Assembly: GCA_039091855.1 (NCBI GenBank)
Contig: JAWCLA010000011.1
Span: 1-16,769, forward strand
Length of the DNA: 16,769 nt
Source of the DNA: Candidatus Aenigmatarchaeota archaeon
GTDB taxonomy: Archaea > Aenigmatarchaeota > Aenigmatarchaeia > QMZP01
Direction of reading: 5' to 3'
Position numbers and translations under genes: made by a program. Positions 3,504 through 16,645 of this stretch are shown here, piece by piece (the stretch's first letter is position 1; every line of letters begins with the position of its first letter). The notes beneath the pieces are model-generated. The model worked only from the letters and a program-made list of their open reading frames with translations, did no database searches and was not told where the DNA came from.

Positions 3504-4127
3504 ATGCCCGAAAGGATGACAGCGAGAAAGGTAAGGATAGCGGAAATAACCAACGGGAGATGGGTAAAGAACGAGGGGCTTGAGCCGAGTTTTGTGGTTA
3601 CGCCTTCGGGGGAGCAGGTTTCACGCGCAAGGATAATGGGAACTGTTGTATCAAAGTTCGTTTCAGAGGACGAGAATTTCGCCTCGATAACTGTTGATGA
3701 CTCCACTGATACGATAAGGGTCAAGACATTCAAGACAGTGAAGCCACTTGATGTTGTGCAGACAGGGGACATAGTGGATGTGATAGGAAAGGTTAGGGAA
3801 TACAACGCAGAGGTTTACATAATGCCGGAGATAGTGAGAAAGATAGAAGACCCGAATCTGGAACTTTTAAGAAGGCTTGAGCTTATTGCAAAGGCAAGAA
3901 AACTTATGCAATCCCCCATCCCACAGTTCATTTCTGCAAAGGAGGACAGGGCAAACCTCAAGAAAAAAGTCCTCGAGGTTATAGAATCGGATAAGTCAGG
4001 TGTTTCATACTCAAAAATCCTTGAGATGGTAAATGCACCTGAAACGCAGGTAGAGTCAGTGGTAAACGAGCTCCTTGACGAGGGAATATGCTACGAGCCA
4101 ACGCCGGGTAAGATAAGGAAGATATGA
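3504..4127 (+). CDS. RPA32/RPA2-like ssDNA-binding protein (OB fold plus C-terminal winged helix)
   Basis: VSRARIMGTVVSKF, ITVDDSTDTIRV and GDIVDVIGKVREY fit an RPA2-type OB fold. The C-terminal VNELLDEGICYEPTPGKIRKI fits a winged helix. Confidence 0.88.
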   Translation: MPERMTARKVRIAEITNGRWVKNEGLEPSFVVTPSGEQVSRARIMGTVVSKFVSEDENFASITVDDSTDTIRVKTFKTVKPLDVVQTGDIVDVIGKVREYNAEVYIMPEIVRKIEDPNLELLRRLELIAKARKLMQSPIPQFISAKEDRANLKKKVLEVIESDKSGVSYSKILEMVNAPETQVESVVNELLDEGICYEPTPGKIRKI

Positions 4128-4191
4128 AAGATTTATCTCCCTCTGGAAATAATCAGCCGCGCCTTATAAAACTTTTTCCCAAGTGTAATCT

Positions 4192-6210
4192 ATGATTACG
4201 CGTGTTTCTCTAAAAGGGTGGAAGTCTCACCTCGATTCAGAGTTAGAATTCTCCAAAGGCGTGAACGCGATAATCGGGATAATGGGTTCTGGAAAGACAT
4301 CTGTGATGGACGGTATTTCATTTGCACTTTACGGTAACTTTCCGGCCTTGCAGTCAAGGAAGGTCACAATCAGTGACTTGATAATGAAGAAGCCGCAAAG
4401 GAAAAGCAAGGCTGAGATAGAGCTGGTATTCAGCGTGAATGGCAATAGTTACTCTATAAAGAGAGTGATAGAGGAAAGGGGGACGACTGTTGCGGAAATA
4501 AGGAAAGATGGCAGGCTTGTTGACGTTAACCCGCAAAATGTCACTAAACAGGTTGAGAAAATTCTGCAGATGGATTACGAGCTCTTCTCAAGGGCTGTCT
4601 ATTCCGAGCAGAACGGGCTTGACTATTTTTTGAGGGTGCCGAAAGGCCAGAGGATGCAGCAGATAGACAGCATGCTTAAGGTTGACCAGTTTGAGGATGT
4701 GAGGGAAAGCTGTGTGTCGCTTGCTAACAGGATAGCAAACTCTGTGAAGGAAAAGGCAAGGATTGTTTCACAGCTTGAGAGCGAGATGCTTTCCGAAAGG
4801 ATAGAGAATATAGTGAATGAGATAGATGAGCTTAAGGGAAAGGCAAGGCCAATAAAGATCAGGCTGGAATCGCTTAAAGGGGAAATAGAATCGCTTTCAA
4901 AAAGGCTCTCTGGTTTCGAGGGATTAGAAACAGAAGCAAACAAAAAGAAAAGGGAACTGGATGCACTGAACGCCTCAATAGGCGAGATAGTTTCCTCGCT
5001 TGAAAATAAGAAGCCGGAAATAAAGGGAAAGGAGGGGCTTGACCTCAAAAAGGAGATAGCGGCAGTTGAGGATGGAATAAAGAACATAGAAGAGGATATA
5101 AGAGGGAAGAGAGAAACGCTAAATGGGTACAGAGAACAGATAGCATCAATAATGGCTAGGATGGAGATTGTTGAAAATGCCATAAAGGAGCTTGAGGGTA
5201 TTGAGGCAAAATGCCCTGTCTGCGAAAGCCAGATAACGGAGGAAAGAAAAAAATCCCTGATAAAGGCAAGAAGGAGCGAAAGAAAAGCCTTTGACGGCGA
5301 ACTTCACTCACTGGAGGAAAAAATAATTGCTGTTTCAGGGGAGATTCAGGCACTCGAAAAAAGGCTCAGGCTGAACATATCGGAAAGGGAGAAGCTTGTG
5401 CACCTTGAGAGTGACATAAGGCTCGTTAGAGAGTGGGAGAGAAGGCTTGAGGAGAAAAAAAGGGAAAGGGAAAGGGTGGAGGCGGAGCTGAAAAGAATGG
5501 AGGAGGAGCTTTCAAGGACCGACATCAAGAAGCTTCGCTCCGAGCTTCAGGAAAAAGCCATTGAGCAAAGGGAAGCAAATGTGATGCTCAGCTCTTTGCG
5601 CGAAAAAATCCTTGACAGGGAAGAGATGTTGAGGGACCTTGAGAAGAGAAATTCATTGCTGAAAGATTACAGGGAGGAGATAGAGAGGGACAGAAACGCA
5701 ATAGAGAGCCTCAACACGTTCGTCGGGGTTCTCAGGGCAACGCAGGAACAGCTCAGGGAGGAGTTCCTGAAGAACGTCAACAGGATAATGTCCGCTGTGT
5801 GGAACGAAATTTATCCTTATGCCGATTTCACGGGAATAAGGCTTGTTGTGGACAAGGATTACGTGCTTCAGCTGAAGGGTTCTGAGGGTTGGATTAATGT
5901 TGACGGGATAGCGTCAGGCGGCGAGAGGTCTATGGCATGCCTTGCGTTAAGGATTGCGTTTTCCCTCTCGTTCATACCAAACCTGAGATGGCTGATACTT
6001 GACGAGCCCACCCACAACCTTGATTCCAACGCGATTAACCAGTTCATAGAAGTCCTAAGGGAAAAGATGCCGTCATTCGTGGAGCAGGTTTTTCTTATAA
6101 CACACGACGAGAGGATTTCGGAGGGCGTTCAGGGAGCCGAAGGGGTCTTGTACAAGCTGGAAAGGAACAAGAACGAGAACGGGGCGACTTTTGTGAGAAG
6201 GTGGGAGTGA
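4192..6210 (+). CDS. rad50: Rad50/SbcC-family SMC-like ATPase
   Basis: Walker A GIMGSGKT, Q-loop YSEQ, long coiled coil with central zinc hook CPVC, signature SGGE, Walker B/D-loop LILDEPTHNLD and H-loop LITHD. Own TTATAAA box about 22 nt upstream. Confidence 0.92.
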   Translation: MITRVSLKGWKSHLDSELEFSKGVNAIIGIMGSGKTSVMDGISFALYGNFPALQSRKVTISDLIMKKPQRKSKAEIELVFSVNGNSYSIKRVIEERGTTVAEIRKDGRLVDVNPQNVTKQVEKILQMDYELFSRAVYSEQNGLDYFLRVPKGQRMQQIDSMLKVDQFEDVRESCVSLANRIANSVKEKARIVSQLESEMLSERIENIVNEIDELKGKARPIKIRLESLKGEIESLSKRLSGFEGLETEANKKKRELDALNASIGEIVSSLENKKPEIKGKEGLDLKKEIAAVEDGIKNIEEDIRGKRETLNGYREQIASIMARMEIVENAIKELEGIEAKCPVCESQITEERKKSLIKARRSERKAFDGELHSLEEKIIAVSGEIQALEKRLRLNISEREKLVHLESDIRLVREWERRLEEKKRERERVEAELKRMEEELSRTDIKKLRSELQEKAIEQREANVMLSSLREKILDREEMLRDLEKRNSLLKDYREEIERDRNAIESLNTFVGVLRATQEQLREEFLKNVNRIMSAVWNEIYPYADFTGIRLVVDKDYVLQLKGSEGWINVDGIASGGERSMACLALRIAFSLSFIPNLRWLILDEPTHNLDSNAINQFIEVLREKMPSFVEQVFLITHDERISEGVQGAEGVLYKLERNKNENGATFVRRWE

Positions 6211-7794: not shown

Positions 7795-8220
7795 TTATGC
7801 TCCCTTTGGCTTCTCCTTCTTCCCTGAAAGCAGCTCGGAAAGGGCAACCCCGTTTACTGCTATAACCTTGTACTTTATGCCGTGCATTGAGCCTACAGCC
7901 CCTCCCTGAGAGCCGCCTACACCTTCTATTGTAACCTCGTCGTGCTCGTCTATTAGCTTGATAGCTCCGGATTTTGGAACAAAAGCCGTAACCTGTATGC
8001 CGTTCTTTATTATCTGGCACCTTACAGCCTTTATTATTCCCGAGTGCGGCTGCTTCTGTTCTACGCCCTTTTTCTTAAGGACTATCGCCCTTGCGGTCGG
8101 GGCGCCCTCAAGCGGGTCCTTTTTCCAGAGCTTGAGGATCTTTCTCTTGTAAACAGTAGACTTCCACCTGGCTTTTTTCCTCTTTCTCTTCAAGTTCCTT
8201 GCGGCAAATTCTCCCGGCAT
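7795..8220 (-). CDS. rps12: 30S ribosomal protein S12 (uS12), divergent
   Basis: GEFAAR, DPLEGAP, KNGxQVTAFVP, IDEHDEV and GKKEKP. Start reassigned to MPGEF (8220). Confidence 0.97.
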
Positions 8221-8354
8221 AGCTTTCGCCTTGTGGCAATTTACTTTGCTGTTGGTTATTTTGCGACTCAACAGGTAAATCGGCGAAGCCGACTTCCAGT
8301 TAAACGAATCGCAGAATCGTTTATTGATTGGTTGCCTGTTATTTACAGAGCTGC
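8221..8354 (-). promoter_or_regulatory. Candidate structured 5' leader RNA of the rps12-rps7 operon
   Basis: Several complementary stems (detailed in findings). A TTTTTAAA box at 8376-8383 predicts a transcription start near 8352. Confidence 0.55.
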
Positions 8355-8415
8355 TAATATAAATAGCAAACAGCATTTAAAAAGCTATTTTAACATCATT
8401 CACGCATAAATAAAT

Positions 8416-8712
8416 ATGCTTGAGTATTGGTTCTGGGTAACAGCTCCACTGGCAGTTTTCACTGCAATCGGTCTATTAATTTACAAGATGGGAAGATACC
8501 CCAGCAAAAAGGAGCCCGGAAAGGAGGAGGCTTATACGTGTGGCGAACCTATCCCAGACATAAATGTGAGGGCCGACAACTTTTACCAGTCGATAAAGAG
8601 GTCATTTAGGTTAAGAAAGATCCAACATATTCACACAGGAGACATCAACGACTATGTGCTATGGCTGGTTTTGGGGCTTGTTGTTTTAATTGTTTTGGTT
8701 GCGGTAATATGA
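8416..8712 (+). CDS. mbhI: Membrane-bound hydrogenase subunit, MbhI-like
   Basis: N-terminal TM helix, loop motif YTCGE, amphipathic helix, HTGDINDYV and a final TM helix, the architecture of Mbh subunit I. ATGA overlap with the small-subunit gene. Confidence 0.75.
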   Translation: MLEYWFWVTAPLAVFTAIGLLIYKMGRYPSKKEPGKEEAYTCGEPIPDINVRADNFYQSIKRSFRLRKIQHIHTGDINDYVLWLVLGLVVLIVLVAVI

Positions 8713-9164
8713 AAAGCAAAAATCCAAGTGTTAAACAGAGGCTAATAAATTACTGCAGGAAAAGGTCAGTTTGGATTCTACCATTCAATTCCGGCGGTTG
8801 CAACGGCTGCGCAATAGAGCTTTTGAGCTGCATATCTCCGAGAAGCGATGTTGAGAGGTTCGGGATTGTTGCCAAGGGTTCACCGAGGCACGCCGATGTC
8901 CTTGTTGTTGACGGGCCTGTGACAACAAAGATGAAGGAGAGGCTTTTGAGGGTTTATCACCAGATGCCTGAACCGAAGATGGTTGTGGCTCTCGGTTCTT
9001 GCACAGCATCAAATGGTGTTTTCGATGGATGCTACAATGTTTGCGGACCACTTGACAGGATAATACCCGTTGACGTTTGGGTTCCTGGCTGTCCACCAAG
9101 ACCGGAGGCAATAATACAGGGAATTCTCAAGGCAATGGAAAAGATTGAAAGGATGGAAAGATGA
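8709..9164 (+). CDS. mbhJ: Group 4 [NiFe]-hydrogenase small Fe-S subunit (MbhJ/EchC/HycG; NuoB family)
   Basis: GGCNGCAIE (CxxC as in hydrogenases, not the CC of NuoB), DVERFG, SPRHADVL, GSC and PGCPPRPE. Start reassigned to ATG 8709, coupled to the upstream stop. Confidence 0.9.
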   Translation: MKSKNPSVKQRLINYCRKRSVWILPFNSGGCNGCAIELLSCISPRSDVERFGIVAKGSPRHADVLVVDGPVTTKMKERLLRVYHQMPEPKMVVALGSCTASNGVFDGCYNVCGPLDRIIPVDVWVPGCPPRPEAIIQGILKAMEKIERMER

Positions 9165-9273
9165 GAGCATTTGTTTGTTGGCGATCAGCCCGATTGGTTT
9201 GTCAGGTAAAGGGTTTAAGTGGATTTTTGGCTCACGACAAACTTTTAAGGATTCACACATATTAATAATAAAT

Positions 9274-9933
9274 ATGATTAAGAGGATAACCCCCGCCATA
9301 ACACTAATTCAGCTTTCTGACATTGATTCAAACATATATGTTTTGGGAGACACCGTAATTGATTCAGGGACCGGTTTCAATTTTACCCGTCTTCACAGCC
9401 TGCTCAAAATACTGAAGCTGAACTTTTCAAGCATAAGGCAGGTGATAAACACGCACGGGCATTTCGACCACATAGGTGGAAACGGCTATTTTCTTAATGC
9501 AAAAGTTGCAATTCACGAGAGGGACGCACCCATATTGGAGAACGGTGACGTTCAAAACAGCTATGCTGATTTCTTTGACGGAAAGCTGAAGCCGAGGCCG
9601 GTTGACCATAAGCTGAAGGAAGGGCAGGTATTGCAGGTCAATGGAATGCAATTAAGGGTTTTGCACACACCTGGCCACACGCCAGGCTCAATCTGCCTTT
9701 ACAACGAGAAGGAAGGCATATTGTTCTCAGGGGACACTGTTTTTTCTGATGGAATTGGAAGGACTGACATGCCAGGAGGGGACATTGAAGAGCTTGATTC
9801 CTCCCTCCAAAAGCTTTCCAAGCTGAAAATAAACAAGATACTTCCTGGTCACGGTGATATAGTCCCTGAAAAGGGCGACAAGCTTCTTAAAGAACTTCTT
9901 ACGGCTGTTGAATCTCCCGAAGAGGAGGAGTAG
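9274..9933 (+). CDS. Metallo-beta-lactamase-fold hydrolase (glyoxalase II-like)
   Basis: THGHFDHIGG, HTPGHTPGS, FSGDT and LPGHG motifs. Start reassigned to ATG 9274, about 25 nt after TTTTAA. Confidence 0.93.
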   Translation: MIKRITPAITLIQLSDIDSNIYVLGDTVIDSGTGFNFTRLHSLLKILKLNFSSIRQVINTHGHFDHIGGNGYFLNAKVAIHERDAPILENGDVQNSYADFFDGKLKPRPVDHKLKEGQVLQVNGMQLRVLHTPGHTPGSICLYNEKEGILFSGDTVFSDGIGRTDMPGGDIEELDSSLQKLSKLKINKILPGHGDIVPEKGDKLLKELLTAVESPEEEE

Positions 9934-9980
9934 TCGTTTTTTGTGGTAAAGGATTTAATAAACAACAACATAGCTTAATT

Positions 9981-10652
9981 ATGTGTTCAGACTATTCCTT
10001 AATGACAATTAGTGAACTTGAAAAAAGGATAGAGCGAATTCTCAGGAAACAGCCGAGGCAGGACGACCTTTTCAGGGCGGTTGTTTTCATGGGACAGATG
10101 GATCTGGCAAAATTCATCTATCACGACAAGAGGCATTGCCCTGGAAACAGGTTCGTGAAGGGGCTTTCAAAATCCTCTGAGACAGCAGCGTTCGGGCAGG
10201 CGCTTGTACAGCTTCTCCTTCTTGCCAAGTCGAGGGGGATGAGCTTTCCTGATGTTTTCAGGTACGCTATTGAGCACATGGAAGATGATGAATGGAAGGC
10301 ACGCGTTCCTGAAAAATTAACAGAAATAAGGGGAATTCCTGCGTTTCGTGGAAAGGTCAAGGGAACTGCTTATGTCGCGTCAGCAAAAAGCCCTGCATCA
10401 AAGGCGCCAAAGGGCAGCATCTTGGTTACAGAGCACGCTGATTCTCAGGTTTCCCACCTTATAAAAAACTTCTCCGCGGTTGTTTCTGACCAGGGAGGGA
10501 GGCTCTGCCACCTTGCTGTTGTGGCAAGGGAGATGGGAATTCCTGCTGTGGTAGGGACAGGGAATGCGACAAGCCTGATAAAAACAGGCGACATTATTGA
10601 GGTTGACGCAAACACAGGAAGGGTTATGGTTGAAAGGGCATCCAAACAATAG
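9981..10652 (+). CDS. Fusion of a degenerate MazG-like all-alpha domain and a PEP-utilising phosphohistidine swivelling domain
   Basis: C-terminal half GGRLCHLAVVAREMGIPAVVG...IKTGDIIEVDANTGRV is a clear PEP-utilisers mobile domain. The N-terminal helices resemble MazG (lower confidence). Confidence 0.75.
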   Translation: MCSDYSLMTISELEKRIERILRKQPRQDDLFRAVVFMGQMDLAKFIYHDKRHCPGNRFVKGLSKSSETAAFGQALVQLLLLAKSRGMSFPDVFRYAIEHMEDDEWKARVPEKLTEIRGIPAFRGKVKGTAYVASAKSPASKAPKGSILVTEHADSQVSHLIKNFSAVVSDQGGRLCHLAVVAREMGIPAVVGTGNATSLIKTGDIIEVDANTGRVMVERASKQ

Positions 10653-10654
10653 CG

Positions 10655-11116
10655 TCAAAAAAGCAGCTTTCTGATATCCTCGGATAACCTGATGATGTTT
10701 ATCTTTTTGTTTTGCTCCTTCGTTATTATGCCTTTACTTTTAAGGGAATTAATAATCCTGAAAACCTTAACCTTTGGCAAGCCAGTCTGCCTTACTATAT
10801 CCGCCTGCGACATCTCTCCCTTGTTTTCCAGCAGGGCGCTTATAACTGCAGCATCATTCCTTTCCATAAAATTAAGCAGCAGTTTCTTGTCAATAGGCGG
10901 CTTCTCAAACTTGGGGGAAAGCAGGTAGTAAGCCAAAACCCCTATCATAAGACCCATCGAGCCTATGAGCGGGACAAAGAGGTAAATTGGAATAGCGCAA
11001 CCGCAGGCGTTTCCTGACGAAACCTGAATCTGAACGTAAAGTGAGCTTATGGCAACTACAAAAATGAACGCGGTGAGAATGAGCATTCCTGTCAGGAACT
11101 TCTTATGCGGGCTCAT
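10655..11116 (-). CDS. Membrane-anchored winged-helix (MarR-like) regulator
   Basis: Two hydrophobic helices separated by a loop containing CGC, followed by GEMSQADIVRQTGLPKVKVFRIINSLKSKGII (HTH) and a wing. Confidence 0.85.
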   Translation of the reverse strand: MSPHKKFLTGMLILTAFIFVVAISSLYVQIQVSSGNACGCAIPIYLFVPLIGSMGLMIGVLAYYLLSPKFEKPPIDKKLLLNFMERNDAAVISALLENKGEMSQADIVRQTGLPKVKVFRIINSLKSKGIITKEQNKKINIIRLSEDIRKLLF

Positions 11117-11244
11117 ATAAAAGCTTTGGAAAGGTAATTTATATTTTTGTTAGAAATTGAATACTAAATATTTAGGCGAGCACTGTTAATAGCTGATAAA
11201 GTGATTAAATTTCGGATTTATACTTCTCACTATAAAAATATAAT

Positions 11245-12069
11245 ATGAGAAAACTACTTGAATTTCTTTGCTATTCAAACCTTTACCTTGCGTTTGGTGC
11301 AGCAATAACCACGCTTTGCACGCTTTTTATGGCAGGATATCCTTTATTGTGGGATTTAGTTTTCATACCTTTTTCAGCTTCATTTTTGATATACAACCTC
11401 AACAGGTTTACAGACATTCATGAAGACAGCATAAATCTGCCGAACAGGACATCCTTTGTCAGGAAATTCGGCAGAAAAATCCTGTACGTTGCTCTAGTGC
11501 TTTATGTTTTTGCACTTTTCTTGGCATATCAGAGAGGTTTGTTGGCATTCATTTTCACTTTAATACCGCCTGTTGGCGGATTTTTCTATTCGTATTTCAG
11601 GCTGAAGACACTCTTTGTCATAAAGAACATAATGGTTGCTGCGCTTTGGGGATTTAACGTGCTTATAGTATGCGCTTTTTTCGGGGATTTCGGCTTTTTT
11701 ATGGTTCTATCTTATCTATTCTTCTTTTTGGCATTTCTCATCAATGTTGTGATATTTGACATAAAGGACATCAAGGGGGACAGCATAAATAAGATTGACA
11801 CGCTTCCTGTAAAAATCGGAATTAAATCAACAAAATCTTTTTGCCTTTCGATACTTGCTGCACTTTTGGCTATTTTGACAGTAATGCTGACCATCAACAT
11901 AAGAAGCATTGTATTGTTGCCATTCCTTTTTTTCATTGGTTTTTTCATCAAGTATGCCCAAGGTTCAGAAAACTCCCCATGGTGGTATTATGGGATTTTT
12001 GTTGACGGAGAGTTCTTTGTTATTCTTGCGTCAATATTTTTGTGGTTTGTTTTAGGGGTCGGTTTTTAG
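11245..12069 (+). CDS. UbiA-family intramembrane prenyltransferase
   Basis: Aspartate-rich motifs NRFTDIHED..N.P.R and FDIKDIKGD...TLPV, the YS motif and about 8-9 TM helices. Confidence 0.92.
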   Translation: MRKLLEFLCYSNLYLAFGAAITTLCTLFMAGYPLLWDLVFIPFSASFLIYNLNRFTDIHEDSINLPNRTSFVRKFGRKILYVALVLYVFALFLAYQRGLLAFIFTLIPPVGGFFYSYFRLKTLFVIKNIMVAALWGFNVLIVCAFFGDFGFFMVLSYLFFFLAFLINVVIFDIKDIKGDSINKIDTLPVKIGIKSTKSFCLSILAALLAILTVMLTINIRSIVLLPFLFFIGFFIKYAQGSENSPWWYYGIFVDGEFFVILASIFLWFVLGVGF

Positions 12070-12177
12070 CATTTTTATCTTTTTAAAAAAAATCAGGTGT
12101 TTGTAGTGCTGTATAAATTGGAAAAAAGGATTTTAAGTAAATTCACCTTATTTATGTATTTTTCCTAAAAATACAAT

Positions 12178-13302
12178 ATGGATATTGCAATAGTTGGCGG
12201 TGGGCCGGCAGGGGCGTACCTAGGTTATTGCCTGGCAAAGGAAGGGATAAAAGCAACAATCTTTGATGATTCCCACCCAAGAGAAAAGCCCTGTGGAGGA
12301 GGGATATCAGAGTTGGCACTAAGAAAATTTCCTTTTATCAAAAAAATTGATGGTGTTAAAGGTATAGGAAGAAAAATAAGAATTATTTCTCCTGTTGGAA
12401 CAGAGGCAGTAATTGGAAAGGGTTTTATAATGGGGATATCAAGGCTTTTGTTGGATAAATATATTCTTGAAATGGCAAAAAACGAAGGTGCGCAATTAAT
12501 AGAAGAAAGGGTATTAGATATAAAAGAAAAAAATAATTCTTGGATAATAAAAACGAATAAAGGAAATAAATATGCTAAACTTATAGTTGGTGCAGATGGA
12601 ACAAACAGTATTGTTAGGAAAAATATTTTAGGACCTCACAGCAAGGAAAATCTTACAATGACATATGGTTATATAGTAAAAGGTATTGAAAATGAACTTA
12701 CATTAATGAAGTTCCTCTGGGGCAAAAACGGATATATATGGGTTTTCCCAAGAGGAAATCATACAAGCATAGGTATCGGTACTGAACTTACAAAAAGTTT
12801 TGGAATTAAAAAACATCTCGATTTTTTTATTAAAAATTATTATCCAAGAGTTAAGAAGCTGCACCATTTTGCTGCTATGATTCCTACTATTACAAACCCT
12901 GAATTTTTTAGGTTACCTACAGCTGGAAAGAATTGGTTAGTTATTGGCGACGCCGCTGGGCATGTTGATCCTATAAGTGCAGAAGGTATAACTTATGCAT
13001 TATGGTCTGCAAAATTGGCAGCAAAAGCAATTATTTATTGTGAACCAGAAAAATTTGATGAACTTTGGAGAAAGGAATATGGAAATGAATTTATTGAGGC
13101 AATAAAACTAAAAAATATTCTTTACAATCCTTATGTTCTTGAAATTTCAATAAGGTTTGCAAAAAAAAGTAAAACTTATTCTCAATTTTTATATGACATT
13201 ATAACAAGCAGGCAAGAATATTCCAAATTGAAAAAAAGATTATTTTATGATTATAAAAAAATTATAATTGAGATAACAAAGGGTTATCTATATGGCAATT
13301 AA
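12178..13302 (+). CDS. Geranylgeranyl-reductase-family FAD-dependent oxidoreductase
   Basis: IVGGGPAG (FAD), PREKPCGGG, GADG, GYIWVFP and GDAAGHVDPISAEGI. Confidence 0.92.
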   Translation: MDIAIVGGGPAGAYLGYCLAKEGIKATIFDDSHPREKPCGGGISELALRKFPFIKKIDGVKGIGRKIRIISPVGTEAVIGKGFIMGISRLLLDKYILEMAKNEGAQLIEERVLDIKEKNNSWIIKTNKGNKYAKLIVGADGTNSIVRKNILGPHSKENLTMTYGYIVKGIENELTLMKFLWGKNGYIWVFPRGNHTSIGIGTELTKSFGIKKHLDFFIKNYYPRVKKLHHFAAMIPTITNPEFFRLPTAGKNWLVIGDAAGHVDPISAEGITYALWSAKLAAKAIIYCEPEKFDELWRKEYGNEFIEAIKLKNILYNPYVLEISIRFAKKSKTYSQFLYDIITSRQEYSKLKKRLFYDYKKIIIEITKGYLYGN

Positions 13303-14431
13303 AGATCTTATGTTTTCATGGTTTATAAAAAACATATTGATACCTAAAAATGAGATAATAGATAGGCCAGGATTTATTATATTAAAACTTAGTGATAAAA
13401 AGGAGATTACTAATATAAGAGAGGTTCTTCTTCCAGAAAAAATATTTGTAGATATAGAGAGAGAAATTATAAATAAATATAAAGAAAATGGGGCGCATCT
13501 TTTATATTCCATAGGTAAAAATTTTGGATACAGATATGCTTCTGTTTCTCATTATCCTTCTATTAAAGAAAAGGGAGAAAAGGATTTTTTAAAATTTACA
13601 TATTTTGTTATAAAATATCTCGAAAGCATCTATTCATCTAAAATAACTTATAAAATTGATATAAAAAGAAAGATTTTCAAAATTTATTTAAAAAACTACA
13701 TAGTCTGCAATAAAAATGGTTTGGGATATTTACTTACTGATGGTTCTATAACAGGTACATGTGCATATGGCGTTCAAGATTTTACTCTTGAAGGAACACA
13801 AATAAAATGTCAAGGCAGAGGCAATGAAAAGTGTGAATTTATATGTGCCCCTCCTGATTATTTTAAAAAAAAAGGAATGCATGTTTTTATAGAAAATAAT
13901 TTGTATGCGCCTGCAGTAGAAATAGATAAATATAACAATATAAATGCAATTAGAAATACTAAATTTGCTTCTAACTCGCTTCAATCACTGATAGATAGTG
14001 GTTTTATCGCATACAAAAATGGTATAATGAATGTTAAATTTGAAAGGTTTTTACTTATAGAAGCCTCAGTAATGTACCTCCTTGAATCCGGGCTTTCCAA
14101 GCTAAAAGACGGCCTAAAGATACTCTGGGACTGCAGCTTCTCTTTCGGGAAGAGGCTTGCGGAGATTTCCGGAAAGCAGGAACCCTGCAAGTTCATAACC
14201 GACCTTTTCCCTGCGCTTGGTTTTGGGGACATCCTGGCTGTGGAGAAGAAGGGAAAGTACGAGGTTTATGTTAATTACTTCCCCTGGATGGAATTCCCGG
14301 AAGTGGATTTTGTGATGTTCAGGGGGCTTTTGTCAGGGGTTATCTCGGGTTTCGTTGGAAGGAAAGTGGAGCTGAAGAAGATAGAGAAGGATATTTCCGC
14401 GGGCTATCTTTCGCTGTTTATATCAGAATAA
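13292..14431 (+). CDS. Tandem V4R-like (XylR-N/V4R) ligand-binding domain protein
   Basis: Domain 1 has LLYSIGKNFG, IVC...GSITG and KCQGRGNEKCEF (the V4R Cys signature). Domain 2 has GIM...ERFLL, LWDCSFSFG, LGFG and FRGLLSGVISG. Overlaps the reductase stop by 11 nt. Confidence 0.75.
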   Translation: MAIKDLMFSWFIKNILIPKNEIIDRPGFIILKLSDKKEITNIREVLLPEKIFVDIEREIINKYKENGAHLLYSIGKNFGYRYASVSHYPSIKEKGEKDFLKFTYFVIKYLESIYSSKITYKIDIKRKIFKIYLKNYIVCNKNGLGYLLTDGSITGTCAYGVQDFTLEGTQIKCQGRGNEKCEFICAPPDYFKKKGMHVFIENNLYAPAVEIDKYNNINAIRNTKFASNSLQSLIDSGFIAYKNGIMNVKFERFLLIEASVMYLLESGLSKLKDGLKILWDCSFSFGKRLAEISGKQEPCKFITDLFPALGFGDILAVEKKGKYEVYVNYFPWMEFPEVDFVMFRGLLSGVISGFVGRKVELKKIEKDISAGYLSLFISE

Positions 14432-14435
14432 AGGA

Positions 14436-15170
14436 TTAGTCGAGAAGCACGATTCCCTTGGCTGTTATGTCTATGCTGTGCCTACCACCATCTATTTTTG
14501 TTTTTCTCATCTTGGCGATAAGGATATTTCTTTGCATATGCTTGCCAACGCTCTCGGCCTCTAGCTTTATTATACCATCGACTATGAACTCTGCTATCCC
14601 GTAGCGGGAATATATAGTGTCTTGTGACTCTGATGTCAGGAGGGTTGTCAACCCCATGTCCTTAAAGGAGTCTATTGTTTTGTAAAGTGTCCTCCTGACT
14701 ATTGATTCCTGTCCTGGCATAAGGGATATCTTTTTCATTATTGCCCAGGAGGGAATGTCCTTTATTATGGACTGGAAGGTTGATGCAAAGATCTCTATTG
14801 ATGAAAGGGAATCTATAACAAGCCTTTTTGCATTGATTTTCTTTGCCTCAGTTTCTATTATTTTTAGTAATTCCGTTATGTCCTTTGTTTCCTTTATCCT
14901 TAATATAACCACCTTTCCTTCCTTTTCAAGCCTTTCAAAATCCATTCCAAGCTGCTTAACGGATTCTTTCAGTTCTGAAGGGCTGTTCTCAAAAGAAACA
15001 TAAAGGCCCGGCTCATTGTTAAGCGCTCCTGAATATATGTACTGAAGGCAGAATGTTGTCTTTCCTGTCCCAGGACCGCCAGAAACCAGTACAGTTGATC
15101 CCTTAGGGTATCCGCCTTCCATAAGCTTGTCTAGCTTTTGAATTCCTGTCTTTATCCTTTCAACAGGCAT
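14436..15170 (-). CDS. KaiC/RAD55-family single-domain ATPase
   Basis: RIKTGI..LD.L..GG.P, Walker A GGPGTGKT, Walker B LVIDS, EFIVDGII and KMR arginine finger. Confidence 0.94.
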   Translation of the reverse strand: MPVERIKTGIQKLDKLMEGGYPKGSTVLVSGGPGTGKTTFCLQYIYSGALNNEPGLYVSFENSPSELKESVKQLGMDFERLEKEGKVVILRIKETKDITELLKIIETEAKKINAKRLVIDSLSSIEIFASTFQSIIKDIPSWAIMKKISLMPGQESIVRRTLYKTIDSFKDMGLTTLLTSESQDTIYSRYGIAEFIVDGIIKLEAESVGKHMQRNILIAKMRKTKIDGGRHSIDITAKGIVLLD

Positions 15171-15280
15171 AATATCACATCATCCATATTGACGCAAAAT
15201 ATATTATTATTTGGGTTTTTAATTTAAATATCACCATTGATCACAGCCAAGTAGAATTCTTTATTTGAAATCGGAAAACC

Positions 15281-16645
15281 TTACTTCTTTTTTTCTGGTT
15301 TGGCCTTTTTCTCAGCAGTTTGTTGTGGCTTCACTTCCTGGCTCTCTATTTCCTCCTCTAGCTCGTCCTCAATCTCTTCTTTATCATCCTCTTTGGCATA
15401 TATTTTAACGCTTGTCTGTGCTCCTCTGAACCTTTTTGAAGCTGCAAATTTTGCCACAACGGTGCTGAAAATCACGGTGAGAATTATTGTAAAAACAACG
15501 CTGTTCAGGATTTTTTCAGCCTCTGCTCCATAGTTTGCAGCCACAAGTGCCCCTGCAACTATTGGAGCCATGGCAGCTGCATCTATTCCCCTCGGTGCAA
15601 CAAAAGACATCACAAAAAGCTCCTGCCTCGTGTAGCTCTTTCTTTCGCTGCCCAACAGAGGGACAAGGGTTATCGGCCTTATCATAACTATAGCTATGAA
15701 GAAAAGCAGGGAAAGTATAATCTCATTGATACCAAGGAAAAGCGTGACCTGCGCGCCAAGGAATGTGAACACGGCTATCCTCAGCATTTCTGAAAAATGG
15801 TCCTCAAACCTCTTTACCTCTTCCTTTTCCGGAAATGCCATATCACCGACTATCAATCCGCAAACAGCCACTGCAAGTATGCCTGAGCCTCCTACATATT
15901 CCGCGGCCGCAAAAGTAAGAAGTGAAATTGACAGCAAAAGAAGAACCGTGTACTCCTCGACCATTCTTCTCACAAGCTTGGCAAAGCCTATGCCTAAAAC
16001 TATTCCTGCACCCACCCCTGCAATGATCATTTCGACAAACTTTGAGAAGTAAAGCATAGGTTGTATCTGGGCTCCTGGCTGGAGAGCAAGGAAGTCAAGC
16101 AATATGAGCGGTATCAGTATGCAAATTGGCGAATTGAAAATGGCCTCGCTCTTTAAAATCGTGAGGGGCCTTTTGTAATCCTTAAGCACGGCATCAAAGG
16201 TGAAAATTATCGCGTCAGCCGTGCCGCTTAAAATGCCGCCCAGAAGGAAGGCAAAGACCCACTCAAGGCCAAATATGAAATGTGCTGCAGCCCCTATAAG
16301 AATGGTATTGACAACAGCCGTTACGAAAGCTAGCTTTATTGCAACGCCTGATGACTTTTTGAACACCCTGAAGCCAACATTAAACATACCCGTAAACACT
16401 ATCAATACAAGGGCAAGCGTCCTGAGGAAATCAGGAACATTTCCCATCTCACCTATGTTTATCGGCTCTATCTTTACATACTGGGCAATAGCAGGGTTTC
16501 CCAGCACGGTGGGCCCAAGTATCAGGCCCAGCAATATAAGGAAAACCGTGTCTGGGAAATTCCTTTTCTTGAAAACATTTGCTATCAAAACCCCAAGCCC
16601 CAGAAGTATTGCAAAATATGTTATGGTTGTTATCACATCAGACAT
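15281..16645 (-). CDS. CPA1/NhaP-family cation:proton antiporter homologue with altered ion-binding motifs
   Basis: About 12-13 TM helices; LILLGLILGP, SE.IFN.P, GGSGILAV, F.FLG and PRG motifs; charged C-terminal tail. Confidence 0.88.
   Translation of the reverse strand: MSDVITTITYFAILLGLGVLIANVFKKRNFPDTVFLILLGLILGPTVLGNPAIAQYVKIEPINIGEMGNVPDFLRTLALVLIVFTGMFNVGFRVFKKSSGVAIKLAFVTAVVNTILIGAAAHFIFGLEWVFAFLLGGILSGTADAIIFTFDAVLKDYKRPLTILKSEAIFNSPICILIPLILLDFLALQPGAQIQPMLYFSKFVEMIIAGVGAGIVLGIGFAKLVRRMVEEYTVLLLLSISLLTFAAAEYVGGSGILAVAVCGLIVGDMAFPEKEEVKRFEDHFSEMLRIAVFTFLGAQVTLFLGINEIILSLLFFIAIVMIRPITLVPLLGSERKSYTRQELFVMSFVAPRGIDAAAMAPIVAGALVAANYGAEAEKILNSVVFTIILTVIFSTVVAKFAASKRFRGAQTSVKIYAKEDDKEEIEDELEEEIESQEVKPQQTAEKKAKPEKKK

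Follow-up and report, generated by a model that had tools for sequence, protein, structure and literature searches.

A probable recombination junction inside a tandem V4R-like sensor gene of a Candidatus Aenigmatarchaeota genome

The stretch of DNA analysed here, called the window, spans positions 1–16,769 of contig C3 in a Candidatus Aenigmatarchaeota genome. This genome is a draft of 689 kb in 38 contigs with N-gapped scaffolds, a GC content of 0.423 and a completeness of 84%. A Pfam scan of 18 open reading frames (ORFs) found archaeal gene content, including S6e, histone, Rad50 and RPA. Our subject is a cluster of four genes in the window. They encode a UbiA-family prenyltransferase (11245..12069, plus strand), a geranylgeranyl-reductase (GGR) family protein named P0002 (12178..13302, plus strand), a tandem V4R/Bet3-fold protein of 379 aa named P0001 (13292..14431, plus strand) and a single-domain KaiC-like ATPase, whose gene is convergent with the V4R-like gene (14436..15170, minus strand). 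An earlier reading of the sequence, the original prediction, had proposed that an AT-rich segment ends abruptly inside the V4R-like gene, and that homologous recombination had brought in a foreign reductase with its matching receptor domain as an exchangeable cassette. For comparison, we used assembled contigs from four runs (X1 to X4) of one study labelled hot springs metagenome. X1 is probably the source sample. Runs X3 and X4 had low depth and contained parts of the stretch only, and no conclusion was drawn from uncovered parts.

P0001 was modeled with AlphaFold. The model (predicted local distance difference test 94.3, predicted template modelling score 0.92) was a two-module α/β protein, with module 1 at about residues 1–195 and module 2 at about residues 230–379. 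Foldseek matched it to the sensor domains of PoxR, MopR and DmpR, to Bet3/TRAPPC3 and to MJ1460 (E = 1.7e-4 to 1.7e-2, probability 1.00). A family profile matched MopR with E = 1.8e-5. Model, Foldseek and profile together indicated a V4R/Bet3-type fold. The V4R family itself (PF02830, COG1719) matched P0001 below the Pfam gathering score (20.2 vs 31 bits) and at aa 167–184 only. Precomputed domains among the 73 homologues included PF02830 in four and PF06505 (XylR_N) in one. The best full-length match was 57% identical, and the closest homologues came from records titled Candidatus Aenigmatarchaeota. Four residues, C139, E167, C173 and C181, were invariant in 60 sequences; all are located in module 1 and form a conserved cysteine cluster. 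They presumably correspond to the zinc ligands of MopR. As given in the accessible text of PMC5847659, V4R sensor domains carry a cluster of three conserved cysteines. According to PMC2253512, V4R domains are believed to bind hydrophobic ligands, with signalling in cis or in trans. Below, residues 1–261 of P0001 are called the N part and residues 262–379 the C part.

The GC content changed abruptly inside the V4R-like gene. Counted per 60-nt line, it was 0.12–0.38 over 13221–14060, and the lines from 14061 gave 0.47, 0.55 and 0.53. The counts in the original prediction had been made on lines in a different register, and their values agreed with ours. Per 300-nt window, GC was 0.22–0.30 over 13051–14100 and 0.49 at 14101–14400. 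At the first, second and third codon positions it was 0.34, 0.27 and 0.17 for 13292–14059, and 0.50, 0.32 and 0.61 for 14060–14431. Third-position GC (GC3) rose from 0.17 to about 0.62 within one reading frame; the jump was a change at synonymous sites. The maximum-likelihood change-point was at 14063 for all bases and at 14063–14072 for GC3, with log-likelihood ratios (LLR) of 38.6–39.2. Third positions of the gene were shuffled 500 times, and no shuffle reached the observed LLR. Among the 414 genome ORFs of at least 200 aa, this was the strongest within-gene GC3 switch (LLR 39.2; the next was 13.0 and the 99th percentile 9.5). It was also the top switch among 118 family members.

The switch was in frame and, in the predicted structure, some 30 residues past the start of the second V4R-like module. 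It thus fell where it had been predicted, at about 14060–14080 and early in the second V4R domain, and the 3′ part had indeed returned to a GC-richer composition, with a GC3 of 0.61 over 14060–14431. The right recombination junction is placed at 14060..14075 (plus strand, codons about 257–262) by the GC and GC3 change-points and by a second allele, described below, that diverges directly before 14075. In the model, the junction follows strands 240–257 of module 2 and lies at the start of helix 259–268, so that it would be inside domain 2 and not in the linker. Downstream of it, the GC-normal 3′ part of the gene (14076..14431, plus strand, GC3 about 0.62) was common to both alleles in the X1 and X2 contigs.

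Upstream of the junction lies an AT-rich tract of about 1.75 kb (12316..14065, plus strand, GC3 about 0.18). It was delimited with GC3 and change-points, and we read it as DNA of an AT-rich donor. Contigs of X1–X4 matched it with 0 mismatches where it was present. The tract carries most of the GGR gene and the whole of module 1, which agrees with the claim that a foreign reductase and an N-terminal V4R domain were brought in. Of 3123 windows of 1800 nt across the genome, only those at the end of contig C19 had a lower GC than the tract. None of the 414 ORFs had a lower GC3 than the GGR gene (0.21, compared with a genome mean of 0.46 and a standard deviation of 0.075). The sequences on both sides were genome-like, with GC3 values of 0.42 for UbiA, 0.62 for the 3′ part of the V4R-like gene and 0.44 for KaiC, and the tetranucleotide correlations of the flanks to the genome were typical (r = 0.88 and 0.92).

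The AT-rich segment had been predicted to run from 12070 onward. Its right end was as predicted; its start is probably at about 12316 (GGR codon 46), where the edge is weak. The first 46 GGR codons (12178..12315, plus strand) encode the extremely conserved FAD-binding (flavin adenine dinucleotide) N-terminus. They had a GC3 of 0.41 vs 0.18 for the rest of the gene and form a possible left crossover region. A 5′ GC3 excess like that of the window was observed in only one of 12 orthologous GGR genes.

The original prediction had seen no integrase, tRNA or terminal repeats, and the scans likewise came back empty. No integrase or recombinase was found among the 18 Pfam-scanned ORFs, no tRNA was found, and the edges of the tract had no meaningful flanking repeats and no inverted repeats. 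An integrative genomic island was rejected for lack of an integrase, a tRNA and flanking direct repeats. A diversity-generating retroelement or a shufflon was rejected for lack of a reverse transcriptase, a recombinase, silent copies or repeats.

We then looked at the contiguity of the junction in the X1–X4 contigs. A 619-nt contig of X1 crossed it (13859–14477) with 0 mismatches and at least 200 nt on each side, and was unbranched. The depth in neighbouring contigs of X1 was alike on both sides (3.3–4.4, about 4x). The left edge was bridged with 0 mismatches in contigs of X1, X2 and X3. The exact 379-aa protein was recorded on two contigs, and a 4708-bp contig of another assembly encoded GGR aa 1–317 identically. 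Scaffolding error is excluded as the cause of the junction, and the misassembly that the original prediction had named as its possible undoing was not seen in these contigs.

A second allele was present in X2. One contig (353 nt, depth 5.6) corresponded to 14075–14400 with one mismatch in 326 nt, and then continued upstream with 27 unlike nucleotides. Counted from alignments, these 27 nucleotides matched the window at 13 positions and the same nine codons of the clade-B locus L044 at 22. Read in frame they gave FFLCETSFI, and the window had FLLIEASVM at the same place. Homologues with C parts closest to that of the window typically have the motif RFFLCEASFM; the RFLLIE motif of the window resembles those of L069 and L039. 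The X2 allele thus has the same 3′ end behind a 5′ part that is homologous but different, and it breaks exactly at the compositional switch. The original prediction had expected such 3′ ends, almost identical but with unlike 5′ parts, and they were found in this allele and again in the loci L114 and L058. The X2 upstream 27-mer had no match in the source genome (84% complete) when up to three mismatches were allowed. An exact 24-mer from the 3′ part had no match in metagenome contigs. A search of shorter proteins with C-part fragments did not find the alternative allele, its best match being 74% identical (or 79% within a piece of 38 aa). Samples of the same study thus seem to retain a non-recombinant allele that is clade-B-like upstream of the junction.

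Similar breaks were observed in relatives. In 117 other full-length orthologues, GC3 of the C part minus GC3 of the N part had a mean of 0.024 (standard deviation 0.076, maximum 0.26); the window had 0.45. The GC gradient of the window was thus not a general property of its orthologues, the other outcome that would have spoken against the original prediction. The 12 next-strongest change-points of the family, at residues 71 to 275, all had an AT-rich 5′ side and a GC-richer 3′ side. One of them was L114, in which GC3 changed from 0.17 to 0.61 at residue 148. In those loci, the AT-rich stretch took in the upstream UbiA or GGR gene and ended inside the V4R-like gene, and KaiC and the sequence beyond it were GC-richer. 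In L045 and L046, the AT-rich stretch was a bounded patch.

Seven unrelated pairs of relatives had near-identical DNA on the KaiC side that ended inside the V4R-like gene. L114 and L058, from different samples, were 97.3% identical over 2389 bp, from codon 104–122 or so through KaiC to the contig end. Upstream they had no DNA similarity, and their proteins were 37–44% identical there. For L043 and L159, identity was 98.3% along 4748 bp, beginning at codon 126. The proteins of L047 and L049 were 37–47% identical for about 125 residues and then 93–100% identical. L044 and L071, two copies in one genome, shared 92% identity over codons 123–327 only. L071 and L086 were 93% identical over 5372 bp from codon 83 of the L071 gene, and this match begins at the contig start of L086. 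In the pairs L142/L147 and L144/L146, in which KaiC is upstream, DNA was 91–97% identical over KaiC and the first ~31 codons, followed by 20–60% protein identity. For P0018 and P0038, a pair available as proteins only, identity changed from 43% to 97% at residue 261.

These comparisons point to a common rule: the side towards KaiC is conserved, replacement affects the KaiC-distal part of the sensor together with the neighbouring lipid genes, and the seam lies inside the sensor gene. The seam codons vary, with an apparent preference for the highly conserved ERFFLCEASFMYILEKELKK stretch. Several protein pairs break at codon 261. A single fixed hotspot at this codon was nevertheless rejected, and breaks at other loci were at codons ~31, 104–135, 160, 207–217 and 250–275. 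Only a preferred region is claimed for the breakpoints.

Other structures were noted at loci of this family. Upstream of UbiA, L043 carries V4R codons 126–203 again as a direct repeat of 235 bp with 90.6% identity (L043:3913-4141 and 5378-5611). L159 is 95–98% identical to L043 on both sides and does not have the interval between the repeats, which holds UbiA and the 5′ part of the V4R-like gene. The repeat looks like the footprint of an insertion or deletion by recombination within the V4R-like gene. L041 has a remnant V4R-like 3′ end (L041:1948-2085), 78% identical to the C part of the window, upstream of an array of UbiA, GGR-like, UbiA, V4R and KaiC genes. This remnant suggests an earlier duplication or replacement at that locus. 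Some genomes carry two V4R-like copies (L044 and L071 in one genome, L086 and L090 in one genome), and a tandem is present in L076:3790-6134. Several contigs break inside the V4R-like gene, which fits strain-level heterogeneity at the locus.

The ancestry of the two parts of P0001 was compared against the 73 homologues. The N part was closest to P0003 (58%), followed by P0013 and P0006. The C part was closest to P0010 (79%), P0022 (76%) and P0025 (75%), and the N parts of these three were only 42–46% identical to that of the window. N-part and C-part identities were uncorrelated for P0001 (r = 0.09, the fourth lowest of 64; family median 0.61). Quick trees grouped the N part with P0003 and P0006 in a starred clade of 19 rows, and the C part with P0010 and P0020 in another group. 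Informative sites showed the same division. In the N part, 62 sites grouped P0001 with P0003 and 28 with P0010, and in the C part the numbers were 7 and 34 (Fisher p = 4.6e-8). With a free breakpoint, none of 300 permutations reached the observed site-pattern value. A shared AT bias does not explain the affinity of the N part, because the gene of P0003 is GC-rich (GC3 0.76). Identities of neighbouring genes were also correlated with those of the two parts. KaiC gave rho 0.39 with the C part and 0.01 with the N part, and GGR and UbiA also tracked the C part. These correlations were not used as evidence, since phylum-level signal dominates them and the genomes are non-independent.

The other genes of the cluster were assigned by profile searches. 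The UbiA-family gene matched PF01040 with 65.7 vs 34.2 bits. Against the NCBIfam equivalogs, including digeranylgeranylglyceryl phosphate synthase, it was far below every cutoff (for example, 56 vs 353 bits). P0002 matched TIGR02032 with 179.4 vs 158.8 bits and the catalytic domain PF22578 (GGR_cat) with 33.4 vs 27 bits, and it has the FAD-binding motif IVGGGPAG at aa 5–12. The profile match, the GxGxxG motif and the catalytic domain together assigned it to the TIGR02032 family. The two digeranylgeranylglycerophospholipid reductase equivalogs matched it far below their cutoffs (NF041080, 80.6 vs 580 bits; NF041160, 66.8 vs 780 bits). Its best relative was 64% identical, and among the loci compared its closest counterpart was the GGR of L040 (60%). 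The genome has three further GGR-like matches (C23:28871-29770, C1:676-1695 and C12:46907-47380), 26–33% identical to the GGR of the window. Judged by these identities, the GGR of the window is an extra paralogue of a distinct subfamily. This subfamily was absent from same-genus genomes, in which the best E-values were 1e-13 to 1e-17.

The KaiC-like protein matched PF06745 with 205 bits. Its Walker A motif is intact, and G31, G34, G36 and K37 were invariant in 41 sequences. A double-domain clock KaiC was rejected, the protein being one domain of 244 aa with 151 vs 408 bits against NF006799. Its closest relatives were those of L041 (60%) and L044 (59%), the same loci that have the best V4R C parts. 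Neither the PADLOC defence families nor the PHROGs phage families gave a match for UbiA, GGR or the V4R-like protein, and KaiC gave generic P-loop matches only.

The order UbiA–GGR–V4R–KaiC recurred complete in G036, L040, L042, L097 and L099. Of 63 family loci, counted as rows, 49 had a KaiC-like match in the flanking sequence that was retrieved. KaiC is convergent and downstream in Aenigmatarchaeota; in loci titled Thermoplasmatota or Micrarchaeota it is upstream and on the same strand. The V4R-like protein was present in 6 of 40 relatives and in none of four same-genus genomes (78–92% complete).

The cluster is flanked by two syntenic anchors. The left one is a gene for a helix-turn-helix (HTH) regulator, MarR/TrmB-like by Pfam DUF7343/MarR_2/TrmB (10655..11116, minus strand). 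The right one is a Na+/H+ exchanger gene (15281..16645, minus strand, PF00999). In the same-genus genomes G001, G003 and G004, the HTH orthologues were 70–78% identical in amino acids and on the same contig as the exchanger gene. The exchanger orthologues were 69–74% identical and ~3–3.7 kb from the HTH orthologue. The interval between the anchors lacked the four-gene block in all three same-genus genomes with both anchors on one contig. The UbiA–GGR–V4R–KaiC cluster is accessory in the source genome and conserved elsewhere.

Three side observations concern the rest of the genus and genome. Positions 11117–15280 of the window correspond to a variable locus in the genus, and in L030–L032 the anchors enclose genes of unknown function and genes for a β-propeller protein, a class-V aminotransferase and a HAD hydrolase. 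GC is lowest in the genome at G000 contig C19 ~8000–10857 (L177:1674-3857), which holds genes for a McrB-like AAA_5 ATPase and for a homologue of McrC that is cut by the end of the contig. This stretch resembles a McrBC restriction island gained by horizontal transfer and is unrelated to the V4R finding. The least genome-like tetranucleotide signature (r ~0.33) was observed at G000 contig C33 ~3851–4900, which may be rRNA.

Because the compositional break, the contiguity of the contigs, the second allele sharing the 3′ part and the recurrence in relatives were all observed, we consider it very likely that the V4R-like gene of the window is a natural recombinant, in which an AT-rich patch of ~1.75 kb from an unsampled donor entered a resident cluster. 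The donor would have been an AT-rich organism with a homologous cluster, and the ~1.75 kb would have replaced the interior of the resident UbiA–GGR–V4R–KaiC cluster. The right crossover would have occurred at 14063–14075, inside the second V4R module, and the left one probably just after the conserved first 46 GGR codons. The incomer would have brought most of the reductase, the whole V4R module 1 with its Cys/Glu cluster and the linker. The resident 3′ third of the sensor gene would have stayed beside its KaiC partner. What we infer is the direction of the exchange (the AT-rich part as the incomer), the left crossover, a need for homology and any effect on ligand or substrate specificity. The window is a sharp case of a recurrent replacement of the KaiC-distal sensor part and the adjacent prenyl-lipid genes.

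Several results weigh against this reading. The left edge was weak, with an LLR of 5.6 that 69 of 2000 shuffles reached (p ~0.035). The tetranucleotide deviation of the tract was modest (r = 0.76 with the genome, rank 96 from the bottom among 1725 windows, ~6th percentile), so that of the two compositional checks suggested by the original prediction, GC3 put the gene at the top of 414 ORFs and tetranucleotides gave moderate support only. The junction was inspected in assembled contigs, not raw reads, and the second allele is one 353-nt contig with 27 divergent nucleotides. The references for the site test were picked after the identities were known; when the same rule was applied to 63 members, P0001 ranked 6th and the median p was 0.005. 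No donor was found, and the best relatives were 64% (GGR) and 58% (N part) identical. In approximately unbiased (AU) tests with the N data, holding P0001 on the clade-B side gave a log-likelihood difference of 37.3 and p = 0.088. With the C data, holding P0001 with P0003 and P0006 gave p = 0.10, and holding it with the 11-row clade containing P0003 and P0006 gave a log-likelihood difference of 1.5 and p = 0.52. One strong AU rejection was discarded as unfair, since its four partners were not a clade in the N tree. Separate trees, another check suggested by the original prediction, thus placed the halves apart in their quick form, and the AU tests did not reject congruence. The tree evidence for different ancestry of the halves is suggestive only.

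Two further elements of the original prediction are less firm. Recombination is supported, and its mechanism may have been homologous, but the two alleles match at only 13 of 27 nucleotides next to the junction. The swap is recurrent, but an exchangeable enzyme-plus-receptor cassette as a fixed unit was not established: UbiA is co-swapped elsewhere, and the breakpoints lie anywhere between codon ~31 and codon ~275.

The cluster might have arrived already mosaic, through recombination in an earlier host followed by transfer of the whole block, and the junction would then be uninformative on this lineage. The missing block in 3 of 3 same-genus anchor intervals and the missing V4R-like protein in the four same-genus genomes are compatible with such an arrival, as are the weaker switches of L040 and L042, whose positions (aa 275 and 250) are close to the junction codon. 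We regard it as unlikely. The genome-like GC3 of UbiA, the V4R 3′ part and KaiC (0.42, 0.62 and 0.44) vs 0.18 in the tract fits a recent patch in a resident cluster. The second allele, with 325 of 326 nt of the 3′ part in samples of the same study, suggests that both forms segregate in one population.

An assembler might also have joined homologous genes of two co-occurring organisms at a shared word, giving a mosaic that exists in no cell. Such a chimera is quite unlikely because the two compositions have little sequence in common; a shared 31-mer is not expected between alleles with GC3 of 0.17 and 0.62 that agree at 13 of 27 nucleotides next to the junction. The draft state of the 38-contig, 84%-complete genome with its N-gapped scaffolds and the use of contigs instead of raw reads speak for it, and L086, L090 and L058 end at contig breaks inside the V4R-like gene, where assemblers struggle. 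Against it, the k-mer-based X1 contig spans the junction without mismatch or branch, and the depth is similar to the left and right of it. Contigs of three runs and the 4708-bp contig of another assembly bridge the left edge, and the exact protein is on two contigs. Moreover, two junctions, both in frame, would be needed.

That local mutational bias or relaxed selection made the 5′ part and the GGR gene AT-rich in place, without any transfer, is extremely unlikely: the same polarity in all 12 other strong family switches could hint at a locus-intrinsic cause, but the switch is abrupt (~12 nt) and at synonymous sites of one ORF, the 117 other orthologues have a mean GC3 difference of 0.024, the changes between X2 and the window near the junction go to both G/C and A/T and take the peptide towards the motif of another clade, the nearest relative of the N part is encoded by a GC-rich gene (GC3 0.76), and drift in place cannot yield the 5′ parts of L114/L058 and L047/L049, with 37–47% protein identity on backbones that are 85–97% identical in DNA.

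A broader proposal can be built on the recombinant origin of the gene. KaiC-like, tandem-V4R and UbiA and/or GGR proteins could form an undescribed archaeal module for sensing or handling isoprenoid lipids. The KaiC-proximal part of the sensor would be a fixed signalling interface, and the distal ligand-binding part would be horizontally exchangeable with its cognate enzymes. Host-dependent DPANN archaea would swap these parts to match the lipids of new hosts or habitats, with the sensor gene as the recombination seam. We offer this proposal as a speculative one and hold it to be doubtful as a whole.

DPANN archaea are thought to be host-dependent for membrane lipids. For Aenigmarchaeota, a supply of lipids by the host was proposed in PMC8407114, and the accessible text of that paper contains no mention of V4R, KaiC, UbiA or geranylgeranyl. 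We found no paper with both 'V4R domain' and 'geranylgeranyl reductase'. Neither the accessible text of PMC5847659 nor the abstracts of two further papers on V4R, KaiC and archaea described this cluster. For the UbiA/GGR association and the recombination pattern, nothing was found in print; Makarova et al. 2017 may bear on the KaiC–V4R link. Intragenic recombination mosaics are well known. The neighbourhood of KaiC, tandem-V4R and UbiA/GGR genes, with its recurrent polarised partial replacement across archaeal lineages, appears to be new.

This conserved, unstudied neighbourhood combines a sensor fold for hydrophobic ligands with a KaiC-type ATPase and two prenyl-lipid enzymes, and it bears clear traces of parts having been replaced repeatedly between lineages. 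Should the exchange follow ligand or lipid specificity, it would offer a testable handle on the lipid-handling adaptation of reduced symbionts, and it would be an archaeal case of modular sensor evolution by intragenic recombination. The case also illustrates that where GC3 shifts abruptly within a gene of a metagenome-assembled genome, the shift can mark a genuine recombination junction in the population and not an assembly error.

Known systems share parts of this pattern. The penicillin-binding-protein genes of Streptococcus and Neisseria are mosaics that arose by recombination with diverged homologues. Like them, the V4R-like gene has foreign blocks in a resident gene, with abrupt breaks in composition and relatedness and no hallmarks of mobile elements. 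Unlike them, the case in the window is from a DPANN archaeon, its block spans two genes, and the breaks in V4R-like genes recur in many lineages with a constant polarity relative to KaiC.

In type I restriction systems, domains are reassorted in the hsdS specificity subunits, and shufflon-like systems exchange cassettes. The V4R-like gene resembles both in that a conserved part stays, a recognition part is exchanged and the breakpoints are inside the gene. It differs in having no silent cassette (the genome gave one match at E up to 10), no recombinase and no inverted repeats at the edges. Its breakpoints are spread from codon ~31 to ~275, and the exchange is between genomes, not within one.

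In its fold, P0001 is like PoxR/MopR/DmpR, MJ1460 and Bet3/TRAPPC3, and it has the conserved cysteine cluster of V4R sensor domains. It differs in that its two modules stand alone as a tandem, without an AAA+ or DNA-binding output domain. KaiC-like ATPases have been proposed as hubs of archaeal signal transduction (Makarova, Galperin and Koonin 2017, as cited in the accessible text of PMC5847659). In the cluster described here, a single-domain KaiC-like ATPase likewise adjoins a putative sensor protein.

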